The notes below the pieces were generated by a model. The model made no database searches, had not been told where the DNA came from, and saw only the letters and a program-made list of their open reading frames with translations. A stretch of DNA of 64,000 bases from Escherichia phage vB_EcoP_EP32B. Where the stretch lies: sequence record OR544955; one strand, 5' to 3'. The position numbers and the translations under genes were made by a program. This document shows, in pieces, positions 1,681 to 63,088 of the stretch (positions within the stretch are counted from its first letter, which is position 1; the number at the start of each line of letters is the position of its first letter).

Positions 1681-1877
1681 TGCGTTATTCAATTGAAGAT
1701 GCCTTTAATAATGATGAAGAATTTGAAACAGAAATTAAATTCTTAATGGAAAAGTATCGTCTACGACGTCAGGATATTCGTATCCTGGCAGACCACCCGT
1801 GTGGTGAAGACGTCCTTTATATTAAAGGAAAATTTGCCGGTGCGAGTGGTATAAATAGATATGTAATTTCAACTTAG
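1680..1877 (+). CDS. uvsY.-1-like small protein
   Basis: 65 aa ORF, start overlaps uvsY stop. Confidence 0.5.
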   Translation: MRYSIEDAFNNDEEFETEIKFLMEKYRLRRQDIRILADHPCGEDVLYIKGKFAGASGINRYVIST

Positions 1878-9100: not shown

Positions 9101-9370
9101 ATGACTAAAGCACGTTTCTTACGAGATACTTTAAAAGTTCTGGAAGCTGAAGCAGTTAAGTTAGTAGAAAAATATGGTGCAAAAGTTAATGGTAATGCCT
9201 TCAACAAAGTATGGATGAAAGTTGATTCTGAAGCTCGAGCTAAAGGTTATTGGGCCACTGATAAACTTGCATCATTCAAAAACAAAGACGGTTCTCCAGC
9301 ATATATCCAAGAAGGTATGCCTAATTGGCAAAATATTTTGAAAACTTACATCAAAATTGCACAGAAATAA
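9101..9370 (+). CDS. Hypothetical 89 aa protein, antisense to the late cluster between genes 23 and 24
   Basis: ORF with GAGGAG SD and own early-type promoter. Confidence 0.5.
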   Translation: MTKARFLRDTLKVLEAEAVKLVEKYGAKVNGNAFNKVWMKVDSEARAKGYWATDKLASFKNKDGSPAYIQEGMPNWQNILKTYIKIAQK

Positions 9371-9422: not shown

Positions 9423-10951
9423 TTAGATGCCTTTTACATATACACGGCGGAAGTAAGCGTTCTTACCAAGGCTGTTCAGGATAGACGGCATACCGGACTG
9501 GATGCGAGCACCTGGAGCCTGCAGGGAACTTTCAGCAAACGGGTTAACACCGATACCGTAACGAGTTTTGAAGCCCATTACCGGCTGGAAGTTCTTAGGA
9601 TCAGAACCACGCAGTGGGGTAAGTGCAACGTAAGGAGCATAGTAAATACCTGCATCCATTTCGTTAGCGCCTTTGTAACCAACGGTGAAGTAATCCTGTT
9701 TAGCATACTGGTCGATGTATACGCGGTATTTACCACCAAGTACACCGGCAAATACAGACTTAGTAGTGTCGGTATTAAAACCAGAAGCCAGACCCTGTGC
9801 AGCGTAAGAAATACCAGTATCAACTGAAGCCAGTACGTTAACTACGTTACGGGAAGCGATAATGAAGTTACCTTCACCACGACCGGTTTGACGAGCAATT
9901 TCAACTGCTTCTTTATCAATCTGGAACAACAGAGATTTAAAGCTTTCACCGGCCCAACGAGCACCACGGATATCAATCGGGTCCTGGAAGTCAAATACAC
10001 CAGCTTTAGAACCCGGAGTCAGGGTCATACCGGATTTACCAACCTGTGCTGAGTAGTTAATCCAATCAACAACTTCACGGTTGATTTCTAGCATAATTTC
10101 TGTAGCCAGAATACCACTCAGTTCAGCATCAGCATCCATACCGTGTACTGCACGGAGGTCTTGTGCTAATTCGATAGAGTAAGCAGCTTTCAGCTGGCGA
10201 GATTTAGCTTCGATAACTTGTTTATCGATACGGAAGCCCATTTCATTCCATGGGTTATCGGTAGAACCGTTGAAACCTTCCTGAAGTTCAGCGATAGAAG
10301 TAGCCATACCTTCAGCGATTTCTACCAGTGCACCAGCTTCCATTTGTTTCTTAACTTCGGCATCTAATTTAGCAGCATCGGTCGCATCGATTGTTACTTG
10401 AACAGAAGCTTGCAGATATACAGTACCAGTTTCCTGGAAGAAGTGAGTGCCAGAGCTGGGAATTTCTTAGCAGCACCCTGACCAGAGAACATCGCATCTG
10501 GGGCATACATCGGATGGAAAGCTTCTTTAGCGCCAGCAGCGATAGGGTCTTTACCATATACTGCACGGAGAGCAAATACCTGACCGGTCGGGCTGTTCAT
10601 AGGCTGAACACCACAAATATCAAAAGCGATCAGATTAGGAATAGCACGACGAACCATACCCATAACTGCTGGCCCAATTTGGGTTACTGCACCAGAGGTT
10701 TGACCTGCTGCGATGTTCTGAGCATTATAACCATGGTCACCACCAATTTCAGCTTCGGTCAAGAAAGAACCAAATGCCTGAGCGATTTTCTCGTCTTTAT
10801 ATTCAGGGGATACTTCGAAATCTTTTTCCTGGTTTTCGAAGATTTTAGCGATAATAGCCTGCTTGCTATTAGCGATTTCCGGCAGGCCTTCACCTTCCAG
10901 CAGTTCTTTCCATTTGTCTACGAGCTGAGCTTTAGTTTTGATAGTAGTCAT
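9423..10951 (-). pseudogene. 23: Major capsid protein gp23, disrupted by a frameshift near 10445-10455
   Basis: N-terminal 168 aa (ORF 10394..10951) and C-terminal part (ORF 9423..10343, frame open upstream to ~10450) both match T4 gp23 but lie in different frames. Confidence 0.85.
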
Positions 10952-10968
10952 TTGTGTTAACCTTTAAA

Positions 10969-11781
10969 TTAGAAACGAGATGCGACTTTCGCATATAAAC
11001 TTACATTAGAATTCTGTTCTACCTGAGTTGTGGTAGTGTCAACTGCTTCGGCAACAAAATTAAGACCGGCAGCGTCATTGTCAACTGTATTTATACTTTC
11101 GGTAATAGCGGCTTCTTCTTTAGTAGAACCTTTAACCATTTCTACAATAGCAGTTAACTTAGTACCAAATGCGTCAGAATAATCCATACCTTCAACCAGG
11201 CCAATAACTTTTTCTTTCTGAGATTCAGTCAGGTCTTTTACGCTTTCATTAATAGCGGTTTCACGCTGAACGTAATTGATATATGCATCACGTTTGGTAA
11301 CTTCTTCGAACAAACGAGCGGTTTCTTCTTTATGTTCGGCCAGCTCTTCTTCCATTTCTGCTACAACATCTACAGATTCTTCTGGAACAACAACGTTATG
11401 TTCAACAAACAGTTCTTTCAGACCACCAAGCATGGATTCGAACAAATCAGCTTTAATGCCTTTATCAACTGCGATTTGGTTTTCTGCGAGCCATTCTTTT
11501 GCAAGATGGTCTAGGAATTTAGAAGCTTGTTCAGCCAATTTTTTATCAGCTTTCTCTTCAGCATCTTCTTTAGCCTTTTCAACTTCTTCTTCGGCCTTTT
11601 CGGCGATGGCTTTGATATGAGATTCAGCCAGTTTGACTGCTTCCTGCTTAACGGTGGCTTCGAATACAGTGCTGAAATTAGCTTTAACGTCCGGAGACAG
11701 TTCTACTGATTCGAAAACACTATTAAGAGCAACTGAAGTCTCGATGTTCTGAGCTTCTTTCAAAAGTTGTTCTTTGATCAT
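10969..11781 (-). CDS. 22: Prohead core scaffold protein gp22
   Basis: 270 aa acidic coiled-coil protein; T4 gp22 is 269 aa. Confidence 0.85.
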   Translation of the reverse strand: MIKEQLLKEAQNIETSVALNSVFESVELSPDVKANFSTVFEATVKQEAVKLAESHIKAIAEKAEEEVEKAKEDAEEKADKKLAEQASKFLDHLAKEWLAENQIAVDKGIKADLFESMLGGLKELFVEHNVVVPEESVDVVAEMEEELAEHKEETARLFEEVTKRDAYINYVQRETAINESVKDLTESQKEKVIGLVEGMDYSDAFGTKLTAIVEMVKGSTKEEAAITESINTVDNDAAGLNFVAEAVDTTTTQVEQNSNVSLYAKVASRF

Positions 11782-11811
11782 TTTAGTGTCCTGTGGTTTA
11801 GATTACATTAT

Positions 11812-11819
11812 TATTTATA
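11812..11819 (-). promoter_or_regulatory. T4-type late promoter for gene 22
   Basis: TATTTATA on + upstream of gp22 start 11781. Confidence 0.5.
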
Positions 11820-12428
11820 ATGCTTTTAAACTCTCTGCGAGAGCTTTAAATGCTTCATCAGCACTGTTTTTGGTGATTTCCACCGAATTTTCTGATTCTG
11901 ATATTTGTTTAGGAGTAACCCAAGCATCTGGAGCAGAAGGTCCCCACACGGCATCTACGCCGACGGTTAATTTAAATCCTTCGTTCACGATACGGTACCC
12001 TTTATTGGTGTCGGTTAAAGAACCAAGACCACGAGAGGAAACACCTGGAATCCAACCAGCTCGTATATTAGCAGCTAATTTATCGCCGGGACCATGGTCG
12101 CCTTCAATAATTCTAGCGCGTCCATATACATCGTTTCCTTTCCACCACATATCTTCAATAATGATAGCGGCTTGCATAGGGTCAACATTTGCGCGAGGTG
12201 GATGATTTAATTCTCCAAGGGCTTGTTTGGTTGCGCTTTTTCCAAAACGCGTTTAGGATATAAACGTTTATTTCGGTTAACAACCTCTGCCTGAAGAAAA
12301 ATACCTTCTATATAAAGCCCTGGTTTTAAGCCAGAATCTTTTCCATCATGAGATTCCAACATTGGAACGCCATCAATAATCTCACCGGGTTGACCCCAAG
12401 TTTCAATAAGTAACTCGGGTTTATTCAT
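11815..12428 (-). pseudogene. 21: Prohead core protease gp21, disrupted by a frameshift near 12207-12235
   Basis: N-terminal 65 aa (ORF 12207..12428) and C-terminal 138 aa (ORF 11815..12177, frame open upstream to a stop at ~12250) are in different frames. Confidence 0.8.
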
Positions 12429-20552: not shown

Positions 20553-21281
20553 TTAATTCATAAACCCATCGTCAAATGGTGAATTTTGTCTACCACGGTT
20601 GTTAACTACTACATACGGCTCAACGTATTCACTTGCCTCTGAATTGATTTGCTCAACTTCAGAATATTCATCGATATTAATGTCATGGATACCGTCAAGA
20701 TTTCTAACAGGGTTAAGTTCCAAGTCACTAAATTCAGGTATATTGATACCTTCATTTTTCTGAAGCACCGGATTGATTTCTTCGCCAGAGTAAATAAACT
20801 TGCCTGCAGTAATTTTACGAATCGCATTTTTACCTACTTGATAGAACGGGTCATATGGTTCAACCCAGTTAATCTCAAACAAACTGTTGTCCATTGGGAA
20901 GTATATCAAATCACCTTCCTTGGGCTCCTGATTGTTGACCTGGTGTTTGAAAAGACCTGGGTTAATAGATAATGTAACTTCGTCTTGAACTTGCATTCCG
21001 AAGTTGCTGAAGAACGATTTCGCTCCTTCATAACCTTCAAAAGAGTTCAGATATGCAGCAAATTTCCATGCTTTAGTAAATTTATTTTTAAGGTCCTCAC
21101 CAAAGATAAGGTCCACGGCAACATATTCACGTGGAACATAAAAACATTCAATACCGCGCATCTGTATGCTTTCTGCCACTAGAACATCGGCTAATGTCTG
21201 ACTATTCTCATAATTATTAAAATTAGAATACCCACCACGATTTTCTAGCTTGGCGAAAAGATTTTTATCATAAGTTGCCAT
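20553..21281 (-). CDS. 14: Neck protein gp14
   Basis: 242 aa (T4 256); position. Confidence 0.8.
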
Positions 21282-37301: not shown

Positions 37302-37876
37302 TATGCAATCTCCATCTCACGAATCAAATCAGTAATAAACGAGTTTATATCTTCTTTTGCAACAATTTTTATTTTACGAAGTTTTTCATTATCTAATACT
37401 GCCGCTTCGTAAGTATCTACTGCAGCTAAAGGTCCTTTATATTGCGGATACTTACGAGCTTCATCACCTTTATCGTACCACACTAAAGGCTCGTCCGGAT
37501 ATGAAACTAAATTGTAAAATTTCTCACGATTTTCATTGATATGATAAAGAACTTGGTCTCCACCGGCATTAGCATATTTCTGAATAGAAGCTTGATACGC
37601 TGCTTCCTGAGATGTAATCCAACCATAATACGGGTCGTAGTTATCGTTACACATCAAAAGAACCCAGTATAATTGAGGGTTGCCATAAATTATGTTTGCT
37701 AGTTCTTCAGGACGCGGAGAGCCTTTAATATAATAAGAACGTAATCTATAATTGGCAGCAACACGCTTAAAGTACTCTTTATAGTTACGAAATATGTCTG
37801 TCATAGGAATAGTAGGTGCATTCTTATTAACTGTTTTAGCACTATATCCTATTGGGTCGAAGAATGTAAATAACAA
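37301..37876 (-). CDS. 53: Baseplate wedge protein gp53
   Basis: 191 aa; position upstream of gp5. Confidence 0.8.
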
Positions 37877-37903
37877 GATAGTCTCCTTCCAATATGAAAT
37901 TGG

Positions 37904-37926
37904 TATAAATAATAATACTATTTATA
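37904..37926. promoter_or_regulatory. Divergent late promoters for gene 4 (+) and gene 53 (-)
   Basis: TATAAATA on + at 37904-37911; TATTTATA on + at 37919-37926. Confidence 0.5.
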
Positions 37927-37937
37927 AGGAGGACAAC

Positions 37938-39134
37938 ATGGCCTACTCTGGTAAATGGGTCCCAAAAAATTTAAAAAAATACCGTGGAGACCATACCAAA
38001 ATAACGTATCGTTCAAACTGGGAAAAATTCTTTTTCGAATGGTTAGATAAAAATCCAGAAATTATTGCATGGGGTAGTGAAACAGCAGTAATTCCATATT
38101 TTTGTAATGCTGAAGGTAAAAAACGTCGATACTATATGGACATATGGATGAAAGATGCATCAGGTCAAGAGTTCTTTGTAGAAATAAAACCAAAGAAAGA
38201 AACTCAACCACCTATTAAGCCTGCAAATCTTACTACCGCAGCAAAGAAACGTTATATGAATGAAATATATACCTGGTCTGTGAACTGTGACAAATGGAAA
38301 GCTGCCTCAGCTATGAGCATATTCCAAATTATATCTGAAGGCGTACAAGCCCCTAAGATTGCTCAGTCTATGAATGAAAGAAAATGGATTGAGATAGGAT
38401 TAGAATACAAGAAAGCTAAAGAGAAAGGAATCACTGCAAAAGCATTTGCAGAATCAAAAGGAATAAAATACTCGTCGTTTACATCTGCAATGTCTAGATA
38501 TGCATCATCTATTAAGACCGCACAGAAAATTGAAACGCTTGAATCTAAACCTAAAAATAAACTCAATAAGCAAGAACGTCAACTTCTGATGATAAACTCG
38601 TTTCGCAGTTCAATACGAGAAAAGATTAGAAATGAAGGCGCAGCAGTAAACAACAAATCATCTAAGTGGTTTGTTGAAACAATTAAGAAAAGTGTAAAAG
38701 GTCATAAAGTAGTCAAGCCTACGCCAGGCAAAATTTATACTTACGTGTATGATGCTAAACATAAAGATACTCTGCCGTATTGGGACAGATATCCTTTGAT
38801 TATTTATTTAGGATTAGGTAAACATAATTTGATGTATGGATTAAACTTGCACTATATCCCACCTAAAGCACGACAACAGTTTCTTGAAGAATTGCTGAAG
38901 CAATATGCTAGCACAACTACTATTACTAATAACACAAAGTTGAAGATAGACTGGAGCAAGGTGAAAGGATTTCAAGGTGCTGACAAAATGATTAAAGCAT
39001 ACCTGCCTGGCCACATTAGAGGAACAATAACAGAAATAGCTCCTAAAGACTGGGCTAACATAATCATGTTACCTACTCAGCAGTTTATGTCAAAAGGAAA
39101 ACGTTTCTCTGCGAATACTGTTTGGAAATCTTAA
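37938..39134 (+). CDS. Head completion gp4-like N-terminus continuous with gp2-like (DNA end protector) region in a single 398 aa ORF
   Basis: ATG 37938 with AAGGAGG SD; one uninterrupted frame where T4 is recalled to have two genes (4 and 2). Confidence 0.5.
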
Positions 39135-41377: not shown

Positions 41378-41440
41378 ATGAAAACATATCAAGAATTTAT
41401 ATATGTTATAGTAGTCCTATCAAAACAAGAGGATAATAAA
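41378..41440 (+). other. Remnant internal-protein (IPI-type) start codon region fused to a partial PeSL
   Basis: ATG with SD encoding MKTYQEFI (capsid-targeting-sequence-like), running directly into TATGTTATAGTAGTCCTATCAAAACAAGAGGA and a second start at 41441. Confidence 0.45.
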
Positions 41441-42280: not shown

Positions 42281-42772
42281 ATGAATATTTGTTTAGGCAG
42301 TACAATTCCTAAGGGTTACGTAATTGATGTCACTACTTGGGAAAATGACGGTGACAACTATAAAACCAAAACATTATTTGGTGTAGAAGAGCATGAGCTC
42401 CAACAGTTTAAATATCTCTTGAAGAAATTTAAGAGTCGTCATTCTAGTACTAAAGCTGAACGTTACTGTGGTAATACACTATTCAGTGATTGCTCGCTTT
42501 TAATCTATGAATACTTGGTTGAAGGACTGTTCTCAGACCAGCTTTATCCAGAATTCATTAAAAAGGTCTTTGATATTGAAGTCGACCTTGGTAATAAATC
42601 TGAAGAAGACGAATCACGTGTATTTGACCTGTTCCAAGGTCTCATTGATATTCTTGGCCATGCTTCTGAATATTATGACTATGATTTCTTGCGTGTAGTT
42701 GAACGTGTTGAATTCGCTTATATTGAAGAAGAAATTGTTTTGCCGACTGTTAAAATGATTGATTTGCTTTAA
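42281..42772 (+). CDS. Hypothetical acidic protein
   Basis: 163 aa ORF. Confidence 0.5.
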   Translation: MNICLGSTIPKGYVIDVTTWENDGDNYKTKTLFGVEEHELQQFKYLLKKFKSRHSSTKAERYCGNTLFSDCSLLIYEYLVEGLFSDQLYPEFIKKVFDIEVDLGNKSEEDESRVFDLFQGLIDILGHASEYYDYDFLRVVERVEFAYIEEEIVLPTVKMIDLL

Positions 42773-42851: not shown

Positions 42852-42990
42852 GGCCCTGTAGCTCAATGGTGCAGTAGCTGCTCTGGAAAACCTGTTCCAA
42901 ATTGCAACAGAAGAACGCGAAGAAGTTACATTATGGATTGAAGATAACGCAGGTCTGAATCTCCAGGACGCGATCTCATTATCCCACAAT
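42852..42990 (+). other. Non-coding region with tRNA-like fragments (probable decayed tRNA cluster)
   Basis: GGCCCTGTAGCTCAATGGT resembles acceptor/D-arm; ...GATCTCATTATCC resembles a tRNA 3' region; no complete cloverleaf could be folded by eye. Confidence 0.3.
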
Positions 42991-44970: not shown

Positions 44971-45092
44971 TATGAATAGTTCTAAAGTGTTTAATAGTCA
45001 AGCTCGTGCAGTAGGTGGTTTTGCTCATGCGATTAAAAATGACCAGATTAAAAACGAGCCTATGTTCTTTTGTATTTGATTCACGAGTCCAC

Positions 45093-45566: not shown

Positions 45567-45925
45567 TGATTAACAAAACATATTGGTCTAATATTGACGA
45601 CGGCAATGAAGGTATTTCGTACTATTCAGTGGATTGGACAGGATGTCCATCCTACTTAGTGAAACGTATTTGCCAAGAATTTAAAATCGACAAACCAGCA
45701 GGTATTATCGTGAACAGATACATTAATGGATATCAACCTATCGATGAAGTAATACGAACAACTCAAGCTGATCTTGAAAAGTTTTTCAATAAGTGCCAAT
45801 GGATAACAGGATGGATTATATTTGTACCGTCGGTATGGTTTTTTAGTACTAAGGTGAGTTCTTTCGGTTTTGTTGATATTATTGCTATCTTATTAGCATC
45901 TGCTATCATAAGTCATCATTATTAA
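45566..45925 (+). CDS. Hypothetical protein with C-terminal hydrophobic anchor
   Basis: 119 aa; ATGA overlap with upstream. Confidence 0.5.
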   Translation: MINKTYWSNIDDGNEGISYYSVDWTGCPSYLVKRICQEFKIDKPAGIIVNRYINGYQPIDEVIRTTQADLEKFFNKCQWITGWIIFVPSVWFFSTKVSSFGFVDIIAILLASAIISHHY

Positions 45926-47984: not shown

Positions 47985-48056
47985 ATGAAAACTCCAACCT
48001 GTAATAATGTCGAGCCCAAGTGCGGTAATGGGTTGCCACGGAATGGCCCAACATAA
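47985..48056 (+). CDS. Possible 23 aa Cys-containing micropeptide
   Basis: ATG 47985 after AAGGAA SD; MKTPTCNNVEPKCGNGLPRNGPT. Confidence 0.25.
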   Translation: MKTPTCNNVEPKCGNGLPRNGPT

Positions 48057-49502: not shown

Positions 49503-49890
49503 AGACATCAAAGGCTATAAGCCGCATACCGACGATAAAATCGGTAAAGTGAACGCTATTAAAGATGCAGAAGTTCGAGGAAAAATACTAATGGCTCAAA
49601 TCCTATCAGGCTTTGGAACTCATTATGAAGCATCTAGACGCATAACTGAAAGCAATCCTTTTGGCCTTGTTCCGAAGCACAAGAAAATTCAAAGCCTTGA
49701 TGACTTTGAGAACCGCCTATGGGCCCTCTTTAATGAGTACAAGGCATATCTGAAAGAAGACGCTGACGATTGTCTTGAAGAAGATGAGATTGCGTATTAC
49801 GAACAACGCCTTGAACAGCTCAAGAACTTCCATCAGGTTCGTGACGAAGTATCTAAAGCAGTTAAAAAGTTAATTCCTTTCAAAGAGTAG
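49492..49890 (+). CDS. Hypothetical protein
   Basis: 132 aa from ATG 49492 overlapping upstream stop. Confidence 0.45.
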
Positions 49891-51760: not shown

Positions 51761-51969
51761 ATATACATTATCCACATCCATATGACCCAAAGAATAAGGC
51801 AGTAATTATTCGTCAATGGGAACGCATTTGCCGTACTAAATGCCCAATTAATAGTCCACATGATGTAGATAAAGACTATATTGGAACATTCGTTGAATAT
51901 ACCTTTATTGATAAGAAAGGTCGTAAACAACATGTAGAAGAATATTGCTTAAAGGTTACATGGTTATGA
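51742..51969 (+). CDS. Hypothetical protein
   Basis: 75 aa ORF overlapping tk 5' end. Confidence 0.4.
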   Translation: MGTIIMNIHYPHPYDPKNKAVIIRQWERICRTKCPINSPHDVDKDYIGTFVEYTFIDKKGRKQHVEEYCLKVTWL

Positions 51970-52496
51970 GTCTTACTGCCGCCCATAACTATAAAGAACG
52001 TGGCATGGGTGTATTAGTTCTTAAACCGGCTATTGATACTCGCGATTCAAAAGGTGAAATAGTCTCTCGTATTGGTATTCGTCAGGACGCCAATATAATT
52101 ACAAAAGACATGGATATCTTTGAATTCTATAAATGGGCTGCAGCACAAAAGGATATTCATTGTGTATTTGTTGACGAAGCTCAGTTCTTAACTACTGAAA
52201 AGGTGTATCAACTTAGTCGTATTGTTGACGTATACAATGTGCCGGTAATGGCATATGGACTACGAACAGATTTTAAAGGTAATCTATTTGAAGGTTCTCA
52301 AGCATTAATGGCTATTGCCGATAAGCTTGTTGAACTTAAAGGTGTCTGTCATTGCGGTAAAAAGGCCACAATGGTAGCTAGAGTCACGGAAGACGGACTT
52401 CCAATTACAGATGGCAGTCAAATTGAAATTGGTGATACTGATAGATATGTGTCATTATGCCGGAAGCATTGGAATGATTTGACAGGGTTGTTATAA
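51960..52496 (+). CDS. tk: Thymidine kinase lacking the N-terminal P-loop (5'-truncated tk)
   Basis: Matches TK from ...AAHNYKERGM through C-terminal Zn motif CHCGKK...LCRKHW; no GxxxxGKS upstream in any frame; in-frame stop at 51924. Confidence 0.7.
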   Translation: MVMSLTAAHNYKERGMGVLVLKPAIDTRDSKGEIVSRIGIRQDANIITKDMDIFEFYKWAAAQKDIHCVFVDEAQFLTTEKVYQLSRIVDVYNVPVMAYGLRTDFKGNLFEGSQALMAIADKLVELKGVCHCGKKATMVARVTEDGLPITDGSQIEIGDTDRYVSLCRKHWNDLTGLL

Positions 52497-55922: not shown

Positions 55923-56204
55923 ATGAAAAAATTAGTAATTGGTTTATTCGCAGTAATGATGGCATTCTCTGTTGGTGCTACCACGGGTGCTGCTGGCGGT
56001 AGTGCAGGAGCTGGTGGTAACCAGTCTTCTGGGCCTTCTAATGGTTCGGTAAATGCATCACATTCTCAGGGTATTGAGAACATTAGATCAAGCTATATTA
56101 ATAGCACGGCCGGACAAGCAACTGAAGCATGGTCAAAGGGCCGAGTAGTTACTCGCTCCGTATTCTGTGATATGCCTAATTATGTTGCTAAGTGCGATAA
56201 GTAA
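55923..56204 (+). CDS. Secreted Gly/Ser-rich small protein
   Basis: 93 aa; signal peptide; GAAGGSAGAGGNQSSG. Confidence 0.5.
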   Translation: MKKLVIGLFAVMMAFSVGATTGAAGGSAGAGGNQSSGPSNGSVNASHSQGIENIRSSYINSTAGQATEAWSKGRVVTRSVFCDMPNYVAKCDK

Positions 56205-59428: not shown

Positions 59429-60196
59429 ATGGCTTTTATTACACGTAGAGAACTTATCAAAGAATTTACCTCGAACGCATATACTCCAGGACCTAATCCT
59501 ATCCGTATGCCTGTAAAGACTCCTGAAGAGATTGAGGAAATCTGTTCATATTATGGGATTACTTCTCGTAAGTTTACTCAATTTGAATGCGTTACTAACA
59601 CACCCGTTAAAGAGTTCATTAAAAATGGTGAGTTCAGCCGTTTATTAGCCAAACAGAAACTTCGTAATTTTTGTATTGGCGGTGAAGGACAATATTTCGC
59701 TAAGCAGTTTCGGAATAACCTTAACAATCTGATGGCCATTGCTTCTCGTATTCGTCCTCAAGCAATTAATATGAAACATTTGAAATATACTTACGATAAG
59801 TTGGAAATCATGGTTATCAGTGAGAATGAGTTCACTCTCACGTATAAACCTAAGAATGATAACGTTGCTCGTGTATTCCACCAAGCGTTGGAAGTGTTAG
59901 GTGATAATATTCACCAGATTAAAGCAATTTATTCTCGTGAGCTTAATATTATCAACCCTATCAAGAATAAGGGCCATATCGCTATCCAGGCTCGTGTATC
60001 TATTGGTAAAAAGGTTCCTGCGCCATGGTGGCACAAAGACTCCGAATATTATCAAAATCTTAAAAAGGAAAATGCACTAATGACCTTCTTCCGGCCGAAG
60101 ATTACCATTACAATCAAATCAAGGCCACTATGGACCAACTGTCTGTTGAACTTGACAAAGCACAAGCTAAGCTTCGTGATGCTCAAAGTGTTGTAA
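59429..60196 (+). CDS. Hypothetical protein; C-terminus possibly frameshifted
   Basis: 255 aa; last ~35 aa hydrophobic/low-complexity while an overlapping frame (to 60254) encodes a coiled-coil tail like those of neighbouring ORFs. Confidence 0.45.
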   Translation: MAFITRRELIKEFTSNAYTPGPNPIRMPVKTPEEIEEICSYYGITSRKFTQFECVTNTPVKEFIKNGEFSRLLAKQKLRNFCIGGEGQYFAKQFRNNLNNLMAIASRIRPQAINMKHLKYTYDKLEIMVISENEFTLTYKPKNDNVARVFHQALEVLGDNIHQIKAIYSRELNIINPIKNKGHIAIQARVSIGKKVPAPWWHKDSEYYQNLKKENALMTFFRPKITITIKSRPLWTNCLLNLTKHKLSFVMLKVL

Positions 60197-61981: not shown

Positions 61982-62237
61982 AGTGTACGGGTATGACTCT
62001 ACTATTCATAAATGCATTTATTGCGATAATGCGAAACGATTGCTGACTGTTAAGAAACAGCCATTCGAATTCATTAATGTTATGCCAGAAAAAGGTGTGT
62101 TCGATGATGAGAAAATTGCTGAGCTTCTGGTTAAGCTTGGCCGTGAATCACAAGTCGGATTGACTATGCCTCAAGTGTTTGCTCCTGATGGAACTTCGAT
62201 CGGTGGCTTTGACCAACTACGAGAATATTTTAAATGA
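61974..62237 (+). CDS. nrdC: Glutaredoxin/thioredoxin NrdC
   Basis: 87 aa from ATG 61974; CIYC active site; MFKVYGYDS...GGFDQLREYFK. Confidence 0.85.
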   Translation: MFKVYGYDSTIHKCIYCDNAKRLLTVKKQPFEFINVMPEKGVFDDEKIAELLVKLGRESQVGLTMPQVFAPDGTSIGGFDQLREYFK

Positions 62238-62371
62238 CAATGGTTACCATTACCGTTGAAGAATATAATCGCCTGCAAGCCATTGAAGAGCTTCTTTGGG
62301 AAATTGAATCTGATTTGCCATCTGGGCTAGAATCCTGGGTTGATTATGAAGAGATCAATAAGCTCCGCGGT
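62234..62371 (+). CDS. Possible 45 aa acidic small protein
   Basis: ATGA overlap with nrdC stop. Confidence 0.3.
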
Positions 62372-62674: not shown

Positions 62675-63088
62675 ATGAATATTTCTGAAACTCGCGGTAA
62701 ATGGTTCAAGATTGTTAAAGAAGACGAAGAACTCCAAGATAAGTTTCCTGAATTAAAGAAAGATACGATCATCAAGGTAATTGGTACTACTACCGAAGAT
62801 GGTTATGGCGACCATGGCATTATCGAAGTGATGTTGAACACAGGTGAGAAACTTTGCATCTATGACCGTGATACTTCTCTTTGGTGCTTCTGGGAATCCC
62901 ATTCAATAGATGAACTCGAAGAAATTGACCAAGTAGTTTGTGATGGTGGTCTTGGCGAATTCGAAGGTGAACGTATTTCTTATGCTTTAGCTAAATTAGC
63001 CGGTCAAGAAAATAACGACGGTTATGAAGGTAATCTGATGCAAGCAGCCGCAGAATACATTGAATATTTAGAAAGACGTTTAAGTTAA
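62675..63088 (+). CDS. Hypothetical acidic protein (Pin position)
   Basis: 137 aa; ATG overlapping upstream stop. Confidence 0.45.
   Translation: MNISETRGKWFKIVKEDEELQDKFPELKKDTIIKVIGTTTEDGYGDHGIIEVMLNTGEKLCIYDRDTSLWCFWESHSIDELEEIDQVVCDGGLGEFEGERISYALAKLAGQENNDGYEGNLMQAAAEYIEYLERRLS

Follow-up and report, generated by a model that had tools for sequence, protein, structure and literature searches.

Conditional-lethal mutants of phage T4 genes 21 and 23, whether amber or temperature-sensitive, are single point mutations kept on permissive hosts, and loss of the gene 23 product (the major capsid protein) or the gene 21 product (the prohead protease) abolishes head formation or maturation. Natural T4-like variants are usually whole-gene cassettes. 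Spurious deletions and frameshifts are also a well-known problem of viral pipelines, arising in reference-guided consensus genomes when uncovered or unalignable positions are dropped instead of being written as N. The subject of this report is a 64,000-nucleotide stretch of Escherichia phage vB_EcoP_EP32B (record OR544955), referred to as a whole as the window, in which gene 23 and gene 21 are both interrupted by short, frameshifting gaps (9423..12428 on the minus strand, bounded by the stop of gene 23 and the start of gene 21). We consider it very likely that these gaps are reconstruction artefacts, of one kind or another, and not mutations.

The window comes from a Mosigvirus, a T4-like myovirus of the RB69 group. 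Its head genes are clustered on the minus strand and follow the canonical order 20, 67, 68, 21, 22, 23, 24. The closest record overall is that of E. coli O157 typing phage 3 (O157tp3; NC_041863/KP869101), which is about 98% identical and colinear across the full 64 kb. The gaps in genes 23 and 21 were placed by pairwise and multiple alignment to 15 related genomes. For a catalogue of all gaps, each annotated coding sequence of NC_041863 was projected onto the window and every alignment break was listed, with segments of at least 10 bp being counted. As context only, and with no tie to the window, Velvet was the de novo assembler used for the O157 typing phages (PMC4429339).

An initial annotation, made from the letters alone, had held that genes 23 and 21 each lost about 30 nt out of frame and are separated only by gene 22. 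Alignment to the 15 genomes bears this out, with losses of 34 bp and 28 bp, respectively. The 5′ fragment of gene 23 (10394..10951, minus strand) is an open reading frame (ORF) of 185 residues that is authentic to about residue 171 (tblastn, query residues 1–171, 97.7%) and then runs as an out-of-frame tail to a premature stop. The 3′ part (9423..10448, minus strand) is 100% identical to reference residues 180–520 and lies in another frame than the 5′ part; it is called as an ORF only from an internal Met at 10343 (9423..10343, 306 residues). Between the two, at 10448..10449, 34 bp are absent that are present in all 15 references, a length (1 mod 3) that shifts the frame. A 6-bp difference just downstream of the gap is a natural allele, which the window shares with the closest reference and its 520-residue gp23.

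Gene 21, encoding the S77 prohead protease, is broken in a similar manner. Its 5′ fragment (12207..12428, minus strand) is a 73-residue ORF with 65 authentic residues and a frameshifted tail ending in …EKAQPNKPLEN before the stop, while its 3′ part (11815..12234, minus strand) is 100% identical to reference residues 75–213, is out of frame with the 5′ part, and is called as an ORF of 120 residues (11815..12177). At the junction (12235..12236), 28 bp coding for about VSDYIKEQV are absent, again with a frameshift (1 mod 3), and the placement is ambiguous by 1 bp. In a Pfam search, the gene 23 fragments matched PF07068 (Gp23) and the gene 21 fragments matched PF03420 (Peptidase_S77). Away from the gaps, the identity of the fragments to reference gp23 and gp21 is 97.7–100%. 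Gene 22, for the scaffolding core protein, is intact (10969..11781, minus strand). A protein identical to the window's gp22 is indexed in 630 blocks of a public contig collection, and full-length gp21 (213–215 residues) and gp23 (522 residues) occur in 10 of 10 compared contigs that encode this exact gp22 (ENA, NCBI, JGI, Logan).

Comparison with the closest references, which the initial annotation had proposed as a check, showed that neither gap occurs in them. Against 4–15 independent references, the breakpoints fall at constant window positions, and every reference holds extra sequence at each. Queries of 40 bp across the gene 23 and gene 21 junctions gave 0 occurrences in 50,697 phage records. 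IMG/VR, the JGI metagenomes, and the GTDB genomes contained no copy of a 27-mer spanning the gene 23 junction, nor did IMG/VR contain the corresponding gene 21 27-mer. Flank patterns with a variable gap, searched in IMG/VR for divergent alleles of the gp21 and gp4 patches, matched only two contigs per pattern, all normally spaced. Exact-sequence lookup returned no record of the shortened gp14 described below. Furthermore, the references compared show no indels of at least 10 bp in the structural region except for homing-endonuclease inserts. The gaps do not behave like natural Mosigvirus indel variation, as the reading frame of essential genes is not kept and the junctions were not found in the other isolates searched.

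The two head-gene gaps are part of a much larger set. Relative to NC_041863, the window lacks 17 reference segments, ranging from 24 bp to 4925 bp, against a single window-only segment of 15 bp. The genes broken or shortened include gp23, gp21, gp14, gp4/gp2, tk, and tRNA-Met (a transfer RNA gene), as well as several small genes. The initial annotation had regarded the other 25 late genes as intact, which does not hold. Gene 14, for the neck protein, has lost 36 bp in frame at 21224..21225, leaving an ORF of 242 residues instead of 254 (20553..21281, minus strand). Gene 4, for a head completion protein with a TnsA-like N domain, has lost 77 bp at 38311..38312. With its final 25 codons and its stop gone, it reads on in frame through gene 2, which encodes the DNA end protector, as a single ORF of 446 residues (37794..39134, plus strand). 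The argument that such lesions are not sustainable in a viable phage is sound, and the sequence as written therefore cannot be a replicating genome.

In 13 of the 17 gaps the length is not a multiple of 3, and the cuts interrupt ORFs and a tRNA gene, starting or ending within them, so no imprint of selection is visible on them. Microhomology at the junctions averages 1.06 bp, compared with 0.76 bp for deletions of the same sizes placed randomly, and reaches 3 bp or more at only one of the 17. Microhomology-mediated deletion or slippage was rejected as a cause, since junction microhomology is at the chance level. Nor does the window show any of the marks of a genuine gene 21/23 deletion mutant: there are 15 further gaps, the junctions bear no signature of biological deletion (short direct repeats) or of design (scars or whole-ORF removal), and the searches recovered neither head-gene junction independently.

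These observations bear directly on the idea that the deletions are real and that the record describes a defective or engineered genome, for example, a helper-dependent variant in a mixed lysate, a packaged dead-end recombinant, or a complemented multi-deletion construct from the laboratory. We regard this as extremely improbable. It would sit well with the clean junctions, which hold no Ns or ambiguity codes, with the gp4–gp2 junction happening to be in frame, and with the concentration of the larger losses in the non-essential early region. However, it would require that the essential late genes 21, 23, and 4 were inactivated or altered at once, along with about 14 other lesions, and that this happened without any bias in frame, without microhomology, and without a logic of design such as the removal of whole genes. 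The junctions, moreover, are in no other sequence of the collections searched, and the idea provides no biological rationale for two further properties described next, namely the co-location of the gaps with variable patches and a limit on divergence from one reference alone.

The first of these properties concerns where the gaps fall. A patch was defined as hypervariable when at least one reference shows 10 or more differences from O157tp3 over 40 positions, and such patches make up 9.6% of the region. Ten of the 17 gaps lie at least 50% inside them, whereas random placement gave 1.5 on average and never more than 7, with none of 5000 permutations reaching 10. In local alignments, reference diversity was 0.14–0.32 within the lost pieces that match a patch, compared with roughly 0.00–0.11 in their flanks. 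Often the lost piece simply equals the patch, as with a 35-bp patch in an e.2-like gene, patches of 146/167 bp and 133 bp in small early genes, and the patch in gp23; the 36-bp gap in gp14 exactly covers a patch with two very different reference alleles (GACAAATGGATTGAGG… and CACATATTTGTTTAAAATC…). The exceptions are gp21, gp4, and three others. The large losses (the ipI, tRNA-to-e, tk, and nrdC/pin regions) occur where the references also differ in length among themselves, and several of them begin within a gene, only a few bases past its start codon, and end inside a later gene.

The gene 23 gap is a good illustration, since it falls in a hypervariable patch for which AADTTTVVGDIY and AASTQTTVGDIY are example alleles. 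A 10-N scaffold gap lies inside the same patch in two independent ENA metagenome scaffolds (MUNK22-1_..._scaffold_6833 and NODE_28849), and three unrelated metagenome contigs have the identical 306-residue C-terminal piece of gp23 annotated as a gene of its own. Because the N-gaps of two independent scaffolds sit there, the patch is a recurrent break point for the short-read assembly of Mosigvirus populations. In the two scaffolds with the N-gap (L028, 2343-3921; L029, 352-1930), gp23 is split into pieces of 179 and 306 residues in public gene catalogues, and this split is a recurrent annotation artefact for Mosigvirus.

Around 10380-10450 (minus strand), the alleles of gp23 fall into at least three classes within a compact hypervariable stretch (AADTTTVVGDIY, AASTQTTVGDIY, and AASTQTVVGDIY). 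Another variable stretch comes after it, in which the length is polymorphic by 6 bp (…SAVVTLDSSATDA, …SVQVTIDAGATDA, and …SVQVTIDATDA). The hypervariable region may be surface-exposed and under diversifying selection; a search of the literature on gp23 hypervariability in Mosigvirus found nothing useful.

The breaks in the metagenome scaffolds are what one might also expect from a mixed stock, in which two or more related Mosigviruses were co-assembled de novo, the graph broke and lost its bubbles where variation was dense, and the conserved contigs were then arranged along a reference and joined end to end. Such a history would likewise make the gaps an artefact, and it could explain why they sit at hypervariable patches and why the window is a mosaic of alleles found in different references. 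We nevertheless think it unlikely, as by itself it does not predict a divergence limit confined to O157tp3, and it leaves unexplained why gp21 and gp4 lost sequence in stretches that are conserved. The gene 23 loss, furthermore, overruns the variable core by 4 nt and 15 nt, into bases common to the known alleles. A mixed infection could conceivably also have produced physically real deletions, if a helper-dependent defective T4-like genome arose through the excision of heteroduplex bubbles that diverged co-infecting phages had formed at hypervariable patches. Such excision (e.g., by endonuclease VII-type repair) would leave patch-sized deletions in a genome that could be packaged yet not replicate itself, but we give this version hardly any credence.

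The second property is a ceiling on local divergence. When compared with O157tp3, the window shows no more than 7 mismatches in any 40-bp stretch of the 64 kb, and stretches with 8 or more number zero. Eight real relatives of similar overall identity (96.5–98.1%), on the other hand, reach maxima of 11–20 mismatches per 40 bp and have 69–814 stretches of at least 8, and they show insertions and replacements too, not losses alone. With each of the other references, the window does have stretches of 8–14 mismatches, so that only O157tp3-like sequence gives the cap. The differences that remain between the gaps are natural. The window carries 1128 single-nucleotide polymorphisms (SNPs) relative to O157tp3, with 76% of the alleles recurring in other Mosigviruses and a transition/transversion ratio of 3.6; on these grounds, the possibility that it is a synthetic or randomly mutated copy of O157tp3 was rejected. 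Nanopore errors arising from DNA modification were also rejected, as indels of 1–2 bp are rare in the window.

The cap is likewise relevant to whether the record was edited after the fact, by stripping out runs of N or masked or trimmed columns (e.g., of a core-genome or trimmed alignment). This too would be an artefact, and one that would yield deletion-only differences at variable or indel-polymorphic loci; in comparable scaffolds, the gene 23 patch does carry N-runs. If variable alignment columns had been trimmed generically, however, divergence would be capped against all references, and such trimming is disfavored by a cap that holds against O157tp3 only. We judge such editing to be highly unlikely on the whole, although the stripping of Ns in particular is indistinguishable on these data from the explanation that we favor.

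That explanation, template-guided reconstruction, is the most likely version within the class of artefacts. A genuine Mosigvirus strain would have been rebuilt against, or filtered through, a template very like O157tp3. Wherever a stretch was too divergent to be placed on the template, or lacked data, nothing would have been written and the flanks would have been joined without Ns. Among the unplaced stretches would be hypervariable patches as well as alternative gene cassettes. The outcome would be differences that are deletions only, with sizes equal to those of the unplaced patches and blind to frames and gene boundaries, two of which happened to land in genes 23 and 21. Read mapping followed by consensus calling would be the most direct route, with close variants being contigs that were ordered on a reference and butted, or N-runs that were stripped later. 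We infer both the exact procedure (mapping with uncovered positions dropped, contigs butted, or N-runs stripped) and the identity of the template. The dropping of unplaceable sequence and the joining of its flanks would account for the one-way differences, the O157tp3 cap, the patch coincidence, and the indifference to frame. Several of the large losses would run from just past a start codon into a later gene because the real phage would carry a different cassette there. The phage itself almost certainly has intact genes 23, 21, 14, and 4.

Several observations count against this explanation. The 28-bp loss in gene 21 and the 77-bp loss in gene 4 lie in stretches conserved among the references (diversity of 0.013–0.014), the gene 21 patch differing in this respect from that of gene 23. 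To accommodate them, one would have to assume further that the strain has a divergent allele of its own or that coverage failed there by chance. Mismatches do not rise toward the junctions, the first 10 bp having 0.6% compared with 1.8% overall; edges nearly free of mismatches are compatible with the anchoring of alignment ends but are no evidence for it. Finally, the window contains no Ns or ambiguity codes, so unresolved sequence left no mark.

The initial annotation had left three readings side by side, and these have fared differently. Systematic assembly error has gained considerably from the window-wide, deletion-only set of differences, the patch coincidence, and the cap. An engineered or defective genome and a packaged non-viable variant have both lost ground, and their premise fails because the pair of head genes is not isolated and the late region is otherwise not intact.

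The remaining gaps are scattered across the window. A small ORF downstream of uvsY has lost 50 bp at 1840..1841, in a variable patch and with a frameshift. At 41401..41402, a loss of 614 bp removes an ipI-like gene from codon 9 on (8 codons are kept), as well as the next ORF, and a hypothetical gene has an in-frame loss of 24 bp within a hypervariable patch at 42635..42636. By far the largest gap, of 4925 bp at 42870..42871, extends from inside tRNA-Met to 33 nt into an ORF, and with it both annotated tRNA genes and 11 ORFs are gone. ARAGORN accordingly found 0 tRNA genes in the 64-kb window, whereas the references have 2–3 each (Met, Arg, and sometimes Asn) within the missing segment, which is 4.9–6.1 kb long in them. 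Another hypothetical gene, at 45070..45072, has a frameshifting loss of 92/93 bp in a hypervariable patch, and the e.2-like membrane-protein gene mentioned above has its 35-bp loss, also frameshifting, at 45913..45914.

Downstream of denV (47992..48035), losses of 390 bp (47992) and 29 bp (48034) surround a kept island of 42 bp. A vs.4-like gene, with an Acb2-like annotation in phage Mizar, lacks 146 bp matching a hypervariable patch at 49576..49577. At 51971..51972, a loss of 446 bp removes two small ORFs and the start of the thymidine kinase gene, whose first 19 codons are gone; the nucleotide-binding P-loop lies there. In the tk gene that remains (51945-52496, plus strand), an upstream TTG yields a spurious ORF of 183 residues. 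Toward the end of the window, an nrdC.5-like gene has a frameshifting loss of 133 bp that matches a hypervariable patch (60076..60077), an ORF after nrdC has lost 216 bp and its first 74 codons (62237..62238), and 190 bp are missing between pin and gene 49 (63075..63076), the sole junction with notable microhomology (7 bp).

A few smaller features deserve mention. In a vs.8-like gene at about 48533 (plus strand), a loss of 4 bp at a short tandem ACAGT/ACAGT shifts the frame of the last 23 codons; this is the only small indel found in a gene and the only one in a slippage-like context. The sole window-specific insertion relative to O157tp3, of 15 bp, is in frame in a small hypothetical gene (approximately 55923-56201, plus strand) and is short enough to have been recovered within single reads. 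An insertion of 15 bp relative to O157tp3 is also present in HY126 and mar009P5, and all three are probably the same natural allele. The interval between genes 23 and 24, compared in loci L006, L012, and L023, holds a conserved ORF of 89 residues on the opposite strand (9101-9370 of the window, plus strand). An extra ORF of 219 residues lies in this interval in some relatives (L006, L012, and NRG-P0074), the one in NRG-P0074 being annotated as a homing endonuclease, and the window has no such 219-residue ORF.

The gaps are most likely uninformative about the biology of the phage and are best taken as a quality flag on the sequence. A naive annotation of the window would give capsid and protease pseudogenes, a false gp4–gp2 fusion, a short neck protein, a truncated tk, and a genome without tRNAs. 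The pieces that are missing, the hypervariable patches and gene cassettes specific to the strain, are the most informative ones. The combination of deletion-only differences from one relative, capped local divergence, and gaps on hypervariable patches could serve as a diagnostic for such artefacts that requires no reads.

How, then, does the window compare with the known systems? Like the lethal mutants of T4 genes 21 and 23, a phage with the window's sequence as written would lack the capsid shell and the prohead protease and would need complementation. Unlike these mutants, the window has 17 unselected deletions that include other essential genes and follow no complementation logic. A second comparison is with the hyperplastic regions of T4-like genomes, as the large missing blocks sit where the references vary in length. 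Here, the references both gain and lose, whereas the window only loses and is cut within tRNA-Met, tk, and other ORFs. A closer likeness is found in metagenome scaffolds L028 and L029, in which the same gene 23 patch failed to assemble and the identical 306-residue C-terminal piece was left, although the scaffolds keep all of the flanking bases along with 10 Ns, and the window is short of 34 bp and has no Ns. Lastly, the window differs from the artefacts of reference-guided consensus genomes in its gp21 and gp4 losses, which lie in conserved sequence, and in having a template that we infer. It resembles them in differences that are deletion-only, frame-blind, capped, and located at divergent stretches, with the remainder carrying genuine strain SNPs, and three of the four features that define a collapsed-gap consensus artefact, i.e., one-way loss, capped divergence, and patch coincidence, are present in it.

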